64,000 nt of DNA. Origin: an uncultured Acidimicrobiales bacterium (lineage in GTDB: Bacteria > Actinomycetota > Acidimicrobiia > Acidimicrobiales > SHLQ01). This document shows positions 49,817 to 56,914 of this stretch, in pieces (within the stretch, counting starts at the first letter, position 1; each line of letters opens with the position of its first letter). The position numbers and the translations under genes were made by a program. A model generated the notes under the pieces. It was not told the origin of the DNA. It saw only the letters and a program-made list of their open reading frames with translations, and did no database searches. Location of the stretch: NCBI GenBank assembly GCA_938084885.1, contig CALKGG010000028.1, forward strand, positions 7,199 to 71,198. The letters run 5' to 3'.

Positions 49817-50806
49817 TTATGTCGCAATGATTCCGTCGATGTCCCACAGGTCGGTCCATGACTGGCCGTCCTTCCAAAGGAATACCTGCCCCTTGATCAT
49901 TCGGCAGTCTCGATCGGCGGCAACGAGCATCGCTTGCTCGTCGGCGGTGAGTGGGTCCGCGGTCGCAGCGGCTAGGTTCGCTGCCAGGTTGTGTTCCGTC
50001 GTAGAGAACGGAATCGGCGTGTGCCCCTGATCGATCGCCCACATCAGACACACCGCAGCTGGATGGACGCCACGAGCCTCGGCAAGGGCACGGATCCCAC
50101 GATCGTCAATGGGGGAGGTGTCGTTAGGTGTGCGATCGCGTTCGGGTCGGTTTGGTGAGCCCAGCGGACAGAAACCAATGGGTTGGATCGACCGCTCGCG
50201 CAAGTACGACCGAAAGGCGCTCTGTTGGAAGTGGGGATGGAGTTCCATCTGGTTCACCGAGGGCGTGATTGTCATGTCTGCGAACACCGCGTCGAACTTT
50301 GCCGGAGTCATATTTGAGGTTCCGATGTGTCGCACGAGGCCCCGCTCGACCAGCGACTCCATCTGCGCCCACGCCTCCAGATACGCATCCGGATTGAACG
50401 CGACAGCTCTCGGGTTTCGCTCATCGACATTCGCGTGTGCGGCGTGCGAATTGGGAAACGGCCAGTGGACAAGGAAGTTGTCGAGATAGTCGATCCCGAG
50501 ATCGCGTAACGTCTGCTCGCACGACTCGCCAACCGCGTGGTGTGAATCGTTCCAGACCTTTGAGCTGATCCACAGTTCGTCACGCGGTATCGCGGTAGAA
50601 CCGAGTACCGCTCCAATCTCGGCTTCATTGCCATACACCGACGCACAGTCGATGTGTCGATACCCGAGCGCCAGGCCAAGCCGCACAGTGTTTGCCACCG
50701 TTGCGGCGTCGACGTGGTCAGAACCAAACGTACCAAGCCCAATGCCAGGCATTTTCGCACCTGAATACAACGTTCGCATTGGAATGTTTGCCGTGGGTTC
50801 TGTCAT
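49817..50806 (-). CDS. Aldo/keto reductase
   Basis: GLGTFG, GYRHIDCASVYGNE, SKVWN, LVHWP, IGTSN and NQMELHP motifs. Confidence 0.92.
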   Translation of the reverse strand: MTEPTANIPMRTLYSGAKMPGIGLGTFGSDHVDAATVANTVRLGLALGYRHIDCASVYGNEAEIGAVLGSTAIPRDELWISSKVWNDSHHAVGESCEQTLRDLGIDYLDNFLVHWPFPNSHAAHANVDERNPRAVAFNPDAYLEAWAQMESLVERGLVRHIGTSNMTPAKFDAVFADMTITPSVNQMELHPHFQQSAFRSYLRERSIQPIGFCPLGSPNRPERDRTPNDTSPIDDRGIRALAEARGVHPAAVCLMWAIDQGHTPIPFSTTEHNLAANLAAATADPLTADEQAMLVAADRDCRMIKGQVFLWKDGQSWTDLWDIDGIIAT

Positions 50807-50879: not shown

Positions 50880-51947
50880 ATGTCTTCTCAAACGAACGGC
50901 ACCGCTGCGCCCAAACGTGTGGGCGTGGTTGGAGCGTCAGGTTACACCGGCACAGAACTGCTCCGGTTAATCCACGGCCACCCGAGCCTAGAACTCGCAG
51001 TGGCCACTGGCGACTCCAAAGCTGGAACAAGAATCGCCGACCTCTACCCAAGCTTGGCCGCTGCGTATGGAGACCGAAAGTACGAGCCATTTTCTCCAGA
51101 GTTGGTCGATGGACTCGATCTTGTCTTTATCGGCCTCCCACACGGCATCTCAATGTCGGTCGTGCCCCAAATACGGGGCAAGGTGGGCCACATTGTCGAC
51201 CTCGGCTCAGATTTCCGCTTGCACGACAAAGCCCTCTACCCCGAGTGGTACAACGCCGAACACACCGCCCCCGACCTGCTCGACGAATTCGTGTACGGCC
51301 TGCCAGAGCTGTTTCGGGAGAAGATTTCGGGCGCAGAACTCATTGCGGCCACCGGATGCAATGCTGGAGCGTCGATCTTTGCGCTTGCGCCGCTGCTTAC
51401 GGCAGGCGCCATCGAGGGTGATGGCATAATCATCGATCTGATCACCGGGGTCAGCGGCGCTGGTCGCCCACCGAAGGAGAACACGACGTTCTGCACGGTC
51501 GACGAGAACGTCACTGCATATGCACTGTTGTCGCACCGGCACACCCCCGAGATCGAACAGGCGCTTCACGAGCGGACCGGAGTCGACACCACCGTGTTGT
51601 TCACGCCGCACCTTGCACCAATGAACCGAGGAATTATCTCGACGTGTTATGGCCGCCCGGCAAAGGATGGGTTGACGAGTGACGATGCGCTCCAGATTCT
51701 CGCCGACTTCTACGAGAACGAACCGTTCATGGTCGTCGACGAACGCAGTCCGTCAACAAAGGCAGTCACCGGATCCAACAGCGTGCACCTCACAGCACGC
51801 GTCGACCCACGAACAGGCCATGTCATGGTGATCTCGGTGCTCGACAACCTCATGAAGGGCGCCTCGGGCATGGCCGTACAGAACGCCAACCTCGCGCTTG
51901 GCCTCGACGAAACGCTTGGGCTGTCCTCGATTGGGGTCTACCCATGA
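50880..51947 (+). CDS. argC: N-acetyl-gamma-glutamyl-phosphate reductase
   Basis: GASGYTG, LPHG, DLGSDFR, GVSGAGR, HRHTPEI and DNLMKGASG motifs. Confidence 0.96.
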   Translation: MSSQTNGTAAPKRVGVVGASGYTGTELLRLIHGHPSLELAVATGDSKAGTRIADLYPSLAAAYGDRKYEPFSPELVDGLDLVFIGLPHGISMSVVPQIRGKVGHIVDLGSDFRLHDKALYPEWYNAEHTAPDLLDEFVYGLPELFREKISGAELIAATGCNAGASIFALAPLLTAGAIEGDGIIIDLITGVSGAGRPPKENTTFCTVDENVTAYALLSHRHTPEIEQALHERTGVDTTVLFTPHLAPMNRGIISTCYGRPAKDGLTSDDALQILADFYENEPFMVVDERSPSTKAVTGSNSVHLTARVDPRTGHVMVISVLDNLMKGASGMAVQNANLALGLDETLGLSSIGVYP

Positions 51948-53182
51948 GCGCTGTGTCCCCGCTCGCCCCAGCGAGCTTTCCCGAGCTTCCCCCGGTCGCT
52001 GGAGTGCAGCTGGCCACCTTCGAGGCTGGCCTTCGTTACCAGAATCGGGCCGATCTGATGCTCGCTCTGGTCGATGACGCCACCACTGTGGCTGGCGTGT
52101 TCACCACGTCGCTCTGTCCATCGGCACCGGTCGACTGGAGCCGGTCGATCCTCCAACGCGGCACTGCCCGGGCAATCGTCTGTAACAGCGGGAACGCAAA
52201 CGCGTTTACCGGCAAAGCAGGCGCAACATCGGCCGAGCTCACCGCCAAAACAATCGCCGCAGCCTTCGACATCGAACCCACGTCGGTGCACCTCGCATCG
52301 ACTGGCGTCATTGGTGAAACCCTGCCCGACGATCGCCTTGTTGGCGGCCTCGAGAACCTCGCCAACCAACTCGCTCCAGCAACAGCAGCGGGCTGGGAAG
52401 CCGCAGCCAACGCCATCCGAACAACCGATACCTTCGCGAAAGGAGCGTCGGCGACCGTCGACCTCGATGGCACGGCAATCACCGTAGTCGGCATTGCGAA
52501 GGGGAGCGGCATGATTGCTCCAGACATGGCGACCATGCTCGGCTTTGTCTTTACCGATGCCGCCGTTGCCCCCAACGTGCTGCAAACAATGCTGAGTGGA
52601 GCCGCAACCGCGTCGTACAACCGGATCACGGTCGATTCTGACACGTCGACGAGCGACTCGGTGTGGCTATTCGCCACCGGTGCGAGTGGCGCAGCGCCCA
52701 TTACGTCGGTCGATGACCAGCGCTACGGTCCACTCGCCGAAGCGGTCAGCGCAGTGAACCTCGACCTTGCCCATCAGATTGTTCGCGACGGTGAAGGCGC
52801 AACCAAGTTCGTCGAGATCACCGTGTCGGGAGCCGAGCACGATGAGGCTGCGTCGGCGATAGCCCTGTCCATTGCAAACTCGCCCCTCGTCAAGACCGCA
52901 CTCGCTGCCGAAGACGCCAACTGGGGTCGCATTGTCATGGCTGTTGGAAAGGCTGGACAACGAGCGAATCGTGATGCCCTCAAGATTTGGATCGGCGACG
53001 AGCTTGTTGCCGACCAAGGCGTACAGGTGCGTGGCTACTCGGAGGACCGAGCGACCGAGCACTTGAAGAACGATGAGGTCAAGATCAGCGTCGACGTCGG
53101 CATCGCAGATGGCACCGCAACCGTATGGACCTGCGACCTCACCCACGGATACATCGAAATCAACGCTGGATACCGATCATGA
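51944..53182 (+). CDS. argJ: Ornithine acetyltransferase / N-acetylglutamate synthase
   Basis: NSGNANAFTG, TTDT, KGSGMIAPDMATML autocleavage site, RDGEGATK and DANWGR motifs. Confidence 0.96.
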   Translation: MSAVSPLAPASFPELPPVAGVQLATFEAGLRYQNRADLMLALVDDATTVAGVFTTSLCPSAPVDWSRSILQRGTARAIVCNSGNANAFTGKAGATSAELTAKTIAAAFDIEPTSVHLASTGVIGETLPDDRLVGGLENLANQLAPATAAGWEAAANAIRTTDTFAKGASATVDLDGTAITVVGIAKGSGMIAPDMATMLGFVFTDAAVAPNVLQTMLSGAATASYNRITVDSDTSTSDSVWLFATGASGAAPITSVDDQRYGPLAEAVSAVNLDLAHQIVRDGEGATKFVEITVSGAEHDEAASAIALSIANSPLVKTALAAEDANWGRIVMAVGKAGQRANRDALKIWIGDELVADQGVQVRGYSEDRATEHLKNDEVKISVDVGIADGTATVWTCDLTHGYIEINAGYRS

Positions 53183-53280
53183 TAACTCTCAGAGCACTGC
53201 ACGTTTGGCGGAGCCAAAGGTGGTTAGTGAGCGAAGCGAACGGCGGATACATCGAAATCAACGGCGGGTACCGATCATGA
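53146..53280 (+). repeat. 37-bp direct repeat of the argJ 3' end (34/37 identical) flanking a 61-bp insert
   Basis: CGGATACATCGAAATCAACG-NN-GG-N-TACCGATCATGA at 53146-82 and 53244-80. Confidence 0.92.
53179..53280 (+). CDS. 33-aa mini-ORF coupling argJ to argB (MIRU-like element)
   Basis: MITLRALHVWRSQRWLVSEANGGYIEINGGYRS*; ATGA overlap at both ends. Confidence 0.6.
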   Translation: MITLRALHVWRSQRWLVSEANGGYIEINGGYRS

Positions 53281-54173: not shown

Positions 54174-55450
54174 GTACCACCGTCCACACCGAAGCAGTGA
54201 ATGCCGGACCGGCACTCAGTTTCTGTCCAATGATGTCGAACTACGGCGCGCCATCACTCACTCTTGTCAAAGGCGAAGGTACCGAGGTCTGGGATGACCA
54301 AGGCCGTCGATACCTCGATTTCTTGTGCGGGCTTGCGGTCACAAGCCTGGGGCACAGCCACCCGGTAGTCACCGAAGCAATTCGTAACCAAGCAGGCACG
54401 CTCATGCACGTGAGCAACCTGTACAACACGCTTCCGGGGCCAGAAGTGGCGATCACACTCGATCGGCTGTTGCAAACCTTCAGCAGCGCTGCTGTTACAC
54501 GGGCCGCCGACCCGACCGTGGTGACCGAGTCGCCGCGCAGCCAACGCGGCCAGGTCTTGTTCCAGAACTCGGGCGCCGAAGCCAACGAAGCAGCCATCAA
54601 GATTGCTCGCAAATACAACGGTCGAGGTCGCCACGTGGTGCTGTCGGCGTTGCGCAGTTTCCACGGTCGGACGCTTGCCACGCTGCACGCCACCGGCCAA
54701 CCCGAAAAGCACGAGGCGTTCGCTCCGCTTCCAGAGGGATTTCGCCACGCGGCCTACAACGATGTCGAGGCGATGGAAGCAGCGCTCGATCCGAGCGTCG
54801 GCGCAATCATCGTGGAGGCCATCCAAGGCGAAGGCGGCGTAAACACTCCCGATGCTGGCTATCTCAACGACCTGCGGGCGCTCTGCGACGACCGGCAGCT
54901 GCTCTTGATCCTCGACGAGATCCAGACCGGCGTTGCTCGGACCGGCGAGTGGTTCGCGTTTCAACACGACGCGGTCATGCCCGACATTGTCACCATGGCC
55001 AAGGGCCTCGGAAACGGCATGCCGATTGGTGCAGTGTGGGCCAAACGAGAGGTTGCTGAAGCCCTCAAGCCCGGCGACCACGGCTCGACGTTCGCGGGAG
55101 GCCCGCTTGCAGCGGCTGCAGCACGAGCAACACTTTCGGTGATGGAGCAGATGGATGCGCCTGCGGTTGCGACCCAAAAGGGAGCCGAGCTCACCAGTGC
55201 GCTTCTGGCCCTCGACGGCGTTGCGACAGTCCGGGGTAAGGGGATGCTGCTCGCGGCAGAACTGACTACCGATGGCCTTCGTGGTCGTACCGGCGGTGAA
55301 GTGTCGGCGGCGATCGCCGCGAACGGCGTTCTCACCAACGGCGTGACGGCGACATCGATCCGGTTCGCCCCACCGCTCACCGTGTCGTCGGGCGAGATCG
55401 AAGAAGCGATCCACAAGATCGACGCCGCCTTGAAGGGAGCGCAACTATGA
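54170..55450 (+). CDS. argD: Acetylornithine aminotransferase
   Basis: NSGAEANE, FHGRT, DEIQTG, AKGLGNG and HGSTFAG motifs. Confidence 0.94.
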   Translation: MSTTVHTEAVNAGPALSFCPMMSNYGAPSLTLVKGEGTEVWDDQGRRYLDFLCGLAVTSLGHSHPVVTEAIRNQAGTLMHVSNLYNTLPGPEVAITLDRLLQTFSSAAVTRAADPTVVTESPRSQRGQVLFQNSGAEANEAAIKIARKYNGRGRHVVLSALRSFHGRTLATLHATGQPEKHEAFAPLPEGFRHAAYNDVEAMEAALDPSVGAIIVEAIQGEGGVNTPDAGYLNDLRALCDDRQLLLILDEIQTGVARTGEWFAFQHDAVMPDIVTMAKGLGNGMPIGAVWAKREVAEALKPGDHGSTFAGGPLAAAAARATLSVMEQMDAPAVATQKGAELTSALLALDGVATVRGKGMLLAAELTTDGLRGRTGGEVSAAIAANGVLTNGVTATSIRFAPPLTVSSGEIEEAIHKIDAALKGAQL

Positions 55451-56340
55451 GACACCTGCTCGAAATCGATGATCTGACCGGCGACGAACTCGTACACGTG
55501 CTCGAACTCGCGCAAACGAGCACCCCACCGCAGGTCTTGTCGGGCAAAGGCATGGCGCTCGTGTTCGAAAAGCCGAGCCTGCGCACTCGCAACAGTATGG
55601 AGATGGCCGTCTTTCAGCTCGGCGGGCACCCCGTGTACATCCAAAGCAATGAAATTGGACTCGATACCCGAGAGTCGGTCGAGGACGTCACCAACACACT
55701 CGCCGGATTCCACGCTGCGATTGGGGCTCGCGTGTTCGAACATTCAAAGGTTGAACGTATGGCAGCGGTCGACAGAATCCCGATCGTCAACTTGCTCAGC
55801 GACGCAGCACATCCAATGCAGGCGTTGGCCGACGTGCTCACCATCATCGATGAGTTCGGGTCGGTTGAAGGACGAGTCGTCACCTACGTTGGCGATTCGA
55901 ACAATGTCACCCGGTCACTGGGCCTTGCTGTTGGCATGCTCGGTGGCATCTTTCGGATTGCATCGCCGATCGACTACAGCTTTGGCGAGGATGACCTCGC
56001 TCGACTGCGTTCTGCGGGGGGAGTGGTCGAGACGATGACCAACCCATACGAAGCAGTCGAGGGATGCGACGTTGTGTACAGCGATGTCTTTACCTCGATG
56101 GGCCAAGAGGCCGAAACCGACATTCGGTTGCGAGCGTTTGCCGACTATCAGATCAACGAATCGCTAATGGCGGCCGCTGGAGACGCTGTGTTCTTACATT
56201 GTTTGCCTGCGCACCGTGGCGAAGAGGTCACGAGCAACGTCGTCGACAGCCCCGCGAGCCGGGTCTGGAAGCTGGCCGAAAACCGTATGCACGCCGCCCG
56301 CGGCTATCTCGCGTTTGTTATCGGAGAATCAGAACTGTGA
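55447..56340 (+). CDS. argF: Ornithine carbamoyltransferase
   Basis: FEKPSLRTR, HPMQALAD, SMGQE and HCLPAHRG motifs. Confidence 0.95.
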   Translation: MRHLLEIDDLTGDELVHVLELAQTSTPPQVLSGKGMALVFEKPSLRTRNSMEMAVFQLGGHPVYIQSNEIGLDTRESVEDVTNTLAGFHAAIGARVFEHSKVERMAAVDRIPIVNLLSDAAHPMQALADVLTIIDEFGSVEGRVVTYVGDSNNVTRSLGLAVGMLGGIFRIASPIDYSFGEDDLARLRSAGGVVETMTNPYEAVEGCDVVYSDVFTSMGQEAETDIRLRAFADYQINESLMAAAGDAVFLHCLPAHRGEEVTSNVVDSPASRVWKLAENRMHAARGYLAFVIGESEL

Positions 56341-56456
56341 CCTTGGGTAGCCCGGAGGGACCGAGGGCGGAAATGGGCCTCTGGCCAGCAGCGGAGCATC
56401 GAGGAGCGCAGCGACAGATTGTGAACGCTGGAGCGACGAAGGAGCGGGACGTATGA
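56337..56456 (+). CDS. 39-aa mini-ORF coupling argF to argR (MIRU-like element)
   Basis: GTGA overlap with the argF stop and ATGA overlap with the argR start; (V/M)TLGSPEGPRAEMGLWPAAEHRGAQRQIVNAGATKERDV*. Confidence 0.6.
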   Translation: MTLGSPEGPRAEMGLWPAAEHRGAQRQIVNAGATKERDV

Positions 56457-56914
56457 GCAAGACATCGCGTCAACATCGGATAGTGCAACTTTTGGGGGAT
56501 GTGGCGGTCACTTCACAGACGCAGCTTGTTGAGCTGCTGCAAGCCGAGAACATCGAAGCGACCCAGGCCACGGTGTCTCGCGACCTCGAAGACATTGGAG
56601 CTATCAAAGTTCGGGTTCCCGGCGGCGACCTTGTGTATGCGCTTCCAGAGCACACCAACGACCAAGTCGCTCCGCCCGATCATCTCCGCCGTGTCCTGAG
56701 CGATTGGGTTGCAGAGGTTGCCCATTCGCACAATATCGTTGTTATCCGGACCCCTCCTGGGTCCGCGCATGTCGTTGCGTCCGCGCTCGACCGTTCAGGC
56801 CTTGACGGCGTGATCGGCACGGTCGCCGGCGACGACTCCATCATGATCGTCGCGTCAGAAGAAACCACCGGCAAAGACCTTGCCGCTCATATTGCAGATC
56901 TCGCAGGAATCTAG
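56453..56914 (+). CDS. argR: Arginine repressor
   Basis: TQATVSRDL, RTPPGSAH and GTVAGDD motifs. Confidence 0.96.
   Translation: MSKTSRQHRIVQLLGDVAVTSQTQLVELLQAENIEATQATVSRDLEDIGAIKVRVPGGDLVYALPEHTNDQVAPPDHLRRVLSDWVAEVAHSHNIVVIRTPPGSAHVVASALDRSGLDGVIGTVAGDDSIMIVASEETTGKDLAAHIADLAGI

Follow-up and report, generated by a model that had tools for sequence, protein, structure and literature searches.

A dispersed, hairpin-forming repeat with an apparently conserved relay reading frame at the argF/argR junction of an uncultured Acidimicrobiales bacterium

The subject of this study is the short spacer that separates argF from argR in the arg operon of an uncultured Acidimicrobiales bacterium (assembly GCA_938084885.1). 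All coordinates refer, unless a contig is named, to the window, i.e., the whole stretch of 64,000 nucleotides (nt) that was analyzed (contig CALKGG010000028.1, positions 7,199 to 71,198), and all features described in it lie on its plus strand. The source genome of the window is designated G000, other G numbers denote genomes of the same genus and L numbers the loci extracted from them and from other records. The gene for ornithine carbamoyltransferase, argF (55447..56340, 297 aa), stands in the list of open reading frames (ORFs) and scores 328.9 bits with NCBIfam model NF001986 (cut-off 306), and the arginine repressor gene argR (56453..56914, 153 aa) reaches 146.9 bits with TIGR01529 (cut-off 130.45), so that both gene names given in the initial annotation can be retained. 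The argR start is placed at the N-terminal sequence MSKT, which is kept across relatives, and a reading of the spacer sequence revealed no in-frame start further upstream.

The argF stop codon TGA (56338-56340) is part of the tetranucleotide GTGA (56337-56340) and the argR start codon at position 56453 is part of ATGA (56453-56456). The distance from GTGA to ATGA is 116 nt, which is 2 mod 3, and the spacer proper (56341-56452) comprises 112 nt with 48 G, 27 C, 25 A and 12 T, equaling 65% purine. A mini-ORF of 39 codons bridges the gap (56337..56456). It starts on the GTG overlapping the argF stop and ends on the TGA (56454-56456) that overlaps the argR start, resulting in a −4 overlap at both ends, and its translation reads VTLGSPEGPRAEMGLWPAAEHRGAQRQIVNAGATKERDV, followed by the stop. 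The span, its phase and the uninterrupted frame can all be read directly where the initial annotation had noted them, and the same is true for the motifs CCCGGAGGG (56351-59), GCGGAGC (56391-97), GAGGAGCGCAGCGAC (56401-15) and GGAGCGACGAAGGAGCG (56430-46). The frame of the mini-ORF is already open from position 56064; each of the other two sense frames of the spacer holds one internal stop and the antisense strand none. A Shine-Dalgarno-like AAGGAG (56439-44) is located 8 nt ahead of the argR ATG. A simple consensus scan detected no promoter-like or terminator-like site in the spacer, and no Rfam family matched between window positions 50000 and 60000 at E values up to 1. Stop/start overlaps of the ATGA type are found at four other junctions of the operon in G000, namely argC/argJ, argB/argD, argD/argF and argG/argH (positions 51944, 54170, 55447 and 58165), and argR/argG is the sole arg junction with a plain spacer, of 15 nt.

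Relatives provided 29 loci from which the argF/argR junction was retrieved; 23 loci from the same genus hold both genes. Eleven of these lack any insert: eight feature a 4-nt (A/G)TGA overlap, two a 1-nt overlap and one the 8-nt overlap ATGTCTAA. A 4-nt overlap is also present in L026, which stems from another family of the order. The remaining 12 junctions are filled by spacers of 54-186 nt, five of them in the sense orientation of G000 and seven in antisense, i.e., as the reverse complement. Tetranucleotides flank the filled sites, as exemplified by GTGA...ATGA in G000 and G006 and by ATGA...ATGA in G004; in G000, this tetranucleotide repeat is the only duplication at the argF/argR flanks. 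Comparison of the junctions shows that the genes were ancestrally joined by a 4-nt overlap of stop and start (ATGA/GTGA), like that still present at other arg junctions of the operon, and that a copy of a repeat was inserted there, leaving (A/G)TGA on both sides. The spacer had been suspected to be an insert, and a comparison across relatives had been proposed; with empty-site relatives in hand, it can no longer be taken for an ancient conserved leader.

Several repeat subfamilies occupy the argF/argR site. In a tree of concatenated ArgF and ArgR (449 columns), in which many forks are weak, empty, sense and antisense junctions are intermingled; G000, a sense case, clusters with G017, which is antisense and of a different subfamily, and with the empty G010. 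The presence of different subfamilies at one and the same site speaks for several events, the number of which cannot be fixed with this tree. The copy in G006 is a 5'-deleted version of that in G000, shorter by 51 nt and thus in phase, and shares with it the departure from consensus GTGAACGCTGG. Derived changes held in common with G006, together with partial decay, indicate that the G000 copy is old.

At many unlinked places in genomes of the genus, sequences with 75-95% identity to the central 100 nt of the spacer are found. We aligned 69 copies of the conserved core (alignment A1) and built covariance model R1 from this alignment. The core in G000 comprises 76 nt (56360..56435; positions 63558-63633 of contig C28) and is recovered with 70.4 bits (E 1.9e-10) by R1 and with an E value of 1e-12 by nhmmer. 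All 26 genomes of the genus contain R1 matches, from 1 to 46 each and at least 18 in 10 of them, figures that are not exact copy numbers; most of the genomes are incomplete metagenome-assembled genomes (MAGs). In a sample of 151 genomes from the order, the two members of the genus match and none of the other 149 does. A strict core pattern retrieved 79 stretches from a collection of 185,579 species, nearly all of them from MAGs titled uncultured Acidimicrobiales or Acidimicrobiia. The proposal of a repeat family is thus borne out by dispersed matches in relatives. G000 itself has two strong R1 matches, the argF/argR copy (70 bits) and a second one at a contig end (C111, 57 bits), plus two weak remnants. 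nhmmer agrees, and searches of the genome with blastn-short and two hidden Markov models (HMMs) likewise found, beyond argF/argR, a single clear copy at the contig end and two remnants. The family, termed family 1 here, is nearly extinct in G000. Taken together with the empty junctions, the dispersed matches show that the spacer (56341..56452) is one sense, partly decayed copy of a hairpin-forming mosaic repeat that appears to be confined to this genus among the genomes searched and is non-coding in the sense that no peptide is conserved. The G000 copy is devoid of the optional 5' module described below.

Family 1 is built from an optional 5' module or extra hairpin, a hairpin H1 with stem variants GGCC-TCN-GGCC or GCGCC-TCN-GGCGC, an outer helix P1, a helix P2, a variable apical hairpin P3 that ranges from GC-GAA-GC to GGCCC-N4-GGGCC, and an optional 3' module. 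In G000, H1 corresponds to GGCC-TCT-GGCC (56376..56386; A1 columns 17-20 with 24-27, 98.7% paired over 69 copies). P1, P2 and the apical hairpin follow between 56389 and 56430: P1 pairs CAGC (56389-92) with GCTG (56427-30), P2 pairs GCATC (56396-400) with GATTGT (56417-22) and the apical hairpin is GC-GCA-GC (56406-12). When the four helices are laid over A1, 97.5% of the cells are paired, compared to 24-43% when the partners are slid, a figure to be read with the caveat that the search pattern behind most rows of A1 has P2 fixed. Compensatory pairs are seen in P1 (columns 32-77: AU 43, CG 13, UA 5) and in P3 (columns 49-59: CG 23, GC 15). RNAalifold predicted only nine pairs on A1, limited by the placement of gaps in the alignment. 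The hairpins highlighted initially, CCC-GGA-GGG and GC-GGA-GC, are not those that covary and give way to the four helices listed here. The G000 copy departs from the consensus at three places in P2 and its flank.

The 3' module of G000, GGAGCGACGAAGGAGCGGGACGT (56430..56452), bears the AAGGAG. We found 21 instances of this module, five with AAGGAG and 16 with AACGAG. The AAGGAG form is located ahead of a start codon with a long ORF in four of five cases, and the AACGAG form abuts an antisense stop codon in eight of 16; it lies at a sense start only in none, and one instance is ambiguous. An exact scan of the genus with the AAGGAG 15-mer gave six sites, consisting of the four start-adjacent copies, one site inside a tandem array and one chance match within a gene.

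The filled junctions share a relay frame. Among the 12 filled argF/argR junctions, 11, with both orientations represented, have a start codon that either overlaps the argF stop or begins no more than 5 nt from its first base. The frames opened in this way comprise 20-64 codons and end on a stop that shares bases with the start of argR (in the form of ATGA, or of ATGTCTAA and its variants). In the twelfth, that of G017, the frame ends 14 nt inside argR. The relay frame is free of stops in all 12 spacers, and the other frames contain 0-2. Shuffles with free phase retain a relay in 15-54% of the trials for the 11 junctions; for the twelfth, which has no exact relay, the count is 0 of 2000. Spacer lengths are kept in phase: the antisense spacers (54, 129, 129, 132, 138, 144 and 186 nt) are all 0 mod 3 and the sense spacers running from ATGA to ATGA (61, 106 and 112 nt) are all 1 mod 3. 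When distinct lengths at argF/argR and at argJ/argB, the second affected junction of the operon, are counted together, at least 10 length changes have occurred, every one of them in phase. By our arithmetic, chance would produce this with a probability of about (1/3)^10 if the events were independent. The idea that the 2 mod 3 phase in G000 reflects a real constraint is upheld by these lengths and frames. The relay peptides are not conserved, as is obvious from G000 and G004, which read the core in different frames. Other sense copies are built alike. At one site in G009, two tandem 68-nt units are chained via TAGTG overlaps to a GTGA start, and in G001 a frame of 116 codons ahead of purF leads from a TGATG overlap to a TAATG overlap.

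A companion insert is present in G000 between argJ and argB. It carries a relay ORF of 33 codons (53179..53280) that extends from ATGA to ATGA (98 nt) over a copy of a second repeat family (53183-53276), which consists of a variable hairpin followed by a tail. A 36-nt stretch from the 3' end of argJ is present as a direct duplication on the two sides of this insert (53147-53182 and 53244-53280; self-match 37 nt, 92%), and the second copy of the argJ end uses the frame of the ArgJ C-terminus, which closes with YIEINGGYRS and the stop. The insert exists in G000, G001, G006, G014, G021 and G023 and is missing from at least G020 and G005, which have a plain ATGA. All six filled argJ/argB junctions possess an ATGA-to-ATGA relay of 25-33 codons, and all duplicate 15-36 nt of the argJ 3' end; in five relatives the duplicate is about 15 nt long and follows each species' own argJ. 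The assumption of an argJ/argB insert of the same architecture therefore proves appropriate, with the specification that it belongs to a different family. NCBIfam, which confirms argF, argR, argJ and argB, holds no family that matches either of the two mini-ORF peptides. In G012 (L048), three arg junctions are filled, argJ/argB by 74 nt, argD/argF by 67 nt and argF/argR by 132 nt, each with a relay ORF. The relay at argD/argF in this genome comprises 24 codons from TTGA to TTGA, and 16 nt of the upstream gene end are duplicated. The flanking duplications thus vary by site, amounting to 4, 16, 15-36 and possibly 9 nt.

We consider it probable that a repeat copy has been inserted into the argF/argR overlap and that the short frame has been kept so that ribosomes can pass from argF to argR. 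A ribosome terminating at the argF TGA would restart on the overlapping GTG, translate a 39-codon relay frame of no conserved sequence, reach its TGA, terminate there and restart on the overlapping ATG of argR. The element's own AAGGAG, 8 nt upstream of this ATG, would aid the last step. Selection would act on the openness of the frame and on a length in phase and not on the peptide. Through such relay steps the repeat could occupy an operon junction at little cost.

Several observations weigh against this explanation. For G000 alone, a comparable relay ORF arose in 302 of 2000 free-phase shuffles (15%). Taken by itself the G000 relay is therefore not beyond chance, and the weight comes from the comparison with relatives. 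The cores contain fewer stops than their shuffles on both strands (0.63 versus 1.48 per core in sense, 0.64 versus 1.06 in antisense) and 39 of 70 are open in all three sense frames. Openness is thus cheap and partly a property of the family, which leaves phase as the main signal. The filled junctions are related and not independent of each other, and the two-gene tree is weakly resolved. The AAGGAG alone might suffice for argR initiation, rendering the relay dispensable. A crude relay scan around 96 loci, based on noisy ORF-derived gene calls, detected relays in 9 of 68 candidate co-directional settings, all in sense and several of them doubtful. Most family-1 copies do not reside at operon junctions at all, and the sense, start-adjacent placement in G000 is a minority arrangement. 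In 60 of the 96 loci (seven sites entered twice, same crude gene calls), an opposite-strand gene has its stop codon 0-30 nt away from the 3' end of the element, which makes gene, stop codon and antisense element the usual arrangement. Finally, the G000 copy folds no better than its shuffles, with z values of −0.14 as RNA and +0.93 as antisense DNA, and the exceptional hairpin stability pointed to at the outset is not supported.

An alternative view is that the element serves mainly at the ends of genes through its structure as RNA or single-stranded DNA, as a terminator, processing site or 3' stabilizer, and that at argF/argR it would lower or tune argR expression, with the relay being incidental. 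This view and a ribosome relay do not exclude each other. The preferred location directly after stop codons in a single orientation, further copies after tRNA genes and the covariation of the helices all fit. The z values of the G000 copy and the absence of terminator- or promoter-like sites in the simple scan of the spacer do not, and neither the conservation of phase over 12 plus six junctions nor the AAGGAG variant would be explained. We regard this view as unlikely. The occurrence of extragenic, hairpin-forming repeats in both orientations that are often clustered or in tandem is reminiscent of repetitive extragenic palindromic (REP) sequences and bacterial interspersed mosaic elements (BIMEs), and it had been suggested that the inserts are mobilized in trans by an HUH (Y1) nuclease of the REP-associated tyrosine transposase (RAYT) or IS200 type encoded elsewhere. 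Genes matching PF01797 are indeed found in 23 of the 26 genomes of the genus, three of them in G000. Yet, a family-1 HMM hit or the word GAGCGAAGCGA was seen in the flanks of none of 11 PF01797 loci inspected (three in G000 with 2.5 kb on each side, eight in relatives with about 1.5 kb on each side), and neither family 1 nor family 2 borders any of them. Repeat counts and PF01797 counts are uncorrelated over the 26 genomes (Spearman rho 0.04, p 0.83), and G023 and G012 have 29 and 18 repeat matches, respectively, and no PF01797 match, both being incomplete MAGs. Mobilization by such an enzyme is quite unlikely on these grounds. The three PF01797 matches in G000 (C50:32652-32981, minus strand; C76:21600-21920, plus strand; C36:5699-6022, plus strand) reside in open frames of 327-371 aa, with neither repeat in their flanks. 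TnpA proteins of the IS200 type are generally shorter than that.

Alternatively, a local event, duplication or slippage at the junction, could have produced the spacer without any mobile repeat being inserted. Stretches from the 3' end of the upstream gene are in fact present twice, 36 nt at argJ/argB of G000, about 15 nt at the orthologous argJ/argB inserts and 16 nt at argD/argF of G012, and a tandem 68-nt unit is present in G009. This origin is disfavored and very improbable given that the core is common to hundreds of unlinked copies in 26 genomes, that both orientations occur at the argF/argR junction itself and that argF/argR of G000 exhibits a tetranucleotide repeat only. Least of all do we give credence to a functional small protein encoded by the 39-codon ORF, even if this ORF is open, has a start codon and is part of an operon: a family match is lacking in NCBIfam, the frame and the orientation in which the core is read vary from copy to copy, and the resulting peptides are unrelated except near the 3' module.

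With the ribosome relay as the preferred explanation, the closest parallel is provided by MIRUs (interspersed repetitive units of mycobacteria; Supply et al., 1997). In the passages that describe them (PMC3184786; PMC12548453), MIRUs are short intercistronic repeats of about 40-100 bp that are dispersed in tens of copies and form tandem arrays of variable number. They occupy sites that are filled in one case and empty in another, with a tetranucleotide repeat on both sides and an internal ORF that overlaps the neighboring stop and start with −4 spacing, contain G+C-rich internal inverted repeats and are transcribed within polycistronic mRNA. The Acidimicrobiales repeat resembles them as a short intercistronic unit (insert of 112 nt with a core of 76 nt, inserts of 54-186 nt in relatives) with filled and empty operon sites (12 versus 11 of 23), tetranucleotides flanking the filled sites, an internal ORF overlapping the neighboring stop and start and G+C-rich internal inverted repeats, and may also do so in the tandem arrays seen at some loci such as those in G009. 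The analogy drawn in the initial annotation thus fits the architecture as these passages describe it; the host is a member of the Acidimicrobiia and not a mycobacterium. Differences are that most Acidimicrobiales copies are situated directly after stop codons, in antisense and outside operon junctions, that antisense copies at argF/argR also keep the relay and that G000 has only 2-4 copies.

The likeness to REP and BIME elements with their RAYT transposases, as known from Enterobacteria and Pseudomonas (general features in part from PMC3184786), rests on extragenic, hairpin-forming imperfect palindromes and on a modular mosaic that occurs at gene 3' ends in both orientations and in clusters. 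The repeat studied here differs by its longer core of about 76 nt with four helices, by tens of copies at most, by the missing RAYT association and by the relay ORF and Shine-Dalgarno variant at operon junctions. Miniature inverted-repeat transposable elements (MITEs; general features as outlined in part of PMC3184786) share the non-autonomous size, the presence/absence polymorphism and the short flanking repeats. In both of the two full-length copies examined, an 11-nt imperfect inverted repeat with 82-91% complementarity is located near the ends; the 5'-truncated G000 copy has no inverted repeat of at least 8 nt. At variance with MITEs, no parent insertion sequence was found with the 5' module, the one module tried, as there was no inverted pair 1-3 kb apart among ten matches to this module in G009 and none in G000, and the flanking duplications vary from 4 to 36 nt. 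Among the matches listed in a literature search, none described such repeats in Acidimicrobiia by title or abstract.

Some further observations concern the repeats and their surroundings. Tandem arrays of family 1 are found in relatives, with periods of 49, 68 and 105 nt in G009 and others elsewhere; the G000 copy is single. Copies of family 1 directly follow tRNA 3' ends in L059, L073, L102, L120, L122 and L123 and at C66:3053-3131 of G000. The tail of family 2 contains a 25-mer, GGTTAGTGAGCGAAGCGAACGGCGG (53222-53246 in the window; loci L150-L167), that recurs with 100% identity at dozens of unlinked sites across many species of this genus and also takes part in tandem arrays with periods of 51, 85 and 90 nt, a conservation that is unusually strong for a repeat. 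Beside copies of family 1 and family 2, one encounters GGGGAGCGGAGCTYGCGTAGCGACC, a third module that recurs and in many cases has an ATG behind it (L164, L165, L066, L178, L197), and intergenic regions of the genus resemble mosaics of several small modules. The repeat is also present in MAG records with Verrucomicrobiales- or Chthoniobacterales-type titles (L059 and L083; L061, L078, L086, L105, L115, L118, L121, L128 and L129), one of which, L129, even holds an argF/argR junction with an insert. These records are probably wrongly labeled or contain mis-binned contigs.

At four junctions scored as empty, ArgF has a lengthened C-terminus instead of the usual end GES: DEGAGT in L013 (G001), GDGAGAS in L024 (G015), DETGTRVRGS in L020 (G008) and DGGRRPENV in L017 (G009). 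The tails concern the last 20-40 nt of argF and resemble a translation of the element's 3' module, and that of G001 is this module read in frame. They may be scars of old inserts that have partly been absorbed by in-frame deletion. The filled argF/argR allele itself is present in three marine-metagenome DNA runs of one study, from one of which the DNA analyzed here may originate. An empty-site contig was not seen in public runs, where contigs cannot show absence, and no RNA run is listed among the holders of this DNA. In runs X1-X3 the depth is raised over the repeat core (window 56376-56409) because additional family copies are contributed by short contigs that stem from other organisms of the same marine communities. 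The loose ends of these contigs display the 5' hairpin module and the module GGGCGAAGCCC.

On a more speculative level, the repeats might be mobile elements of the Acidimicrobiia that seek junctions and have evolved to be harmless on both strands, being stop-poor, capable of a relay either way and equipped with the ribosome-binding variant only when facing a start. Their movement would rely on a mechanism other than RAYT and entail target duplications of 4 to 36 nt. In-frame deletions would heal the junctions at a later time, turning the 3' module of the element into a new C-terminal tail of the upstream protein, such as DEGAGT or GDGAGAS in ArgF. As a whole, this scenario is rather improbable.

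Judged from sequence comparison, the repeat at argF/argR appears to represent a new family of MIRU-like design, with unusually clear comparative evidence for a relay function. The design put forward in 1997 for mycobacterial MIRUs, which spares the genes, would thus also exist in a distant, uncultured marine lineage of Actinobacteria. One and the same junction is available in many versions, empty, sense or antisense, with several subfamilies and many lengths, a comparison of a kind that the MIRU passages mentioned above do not report. The fact that only reading phase and openness are conserved among these versions provides comparative evidence for selection on termination-reinitiation coupling. 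For genome annotation, the finding implies a warning that such mini-ORFs would be relays and not genes, and variable repeats suggest themselves as markers when populations of these bacteria are studied.

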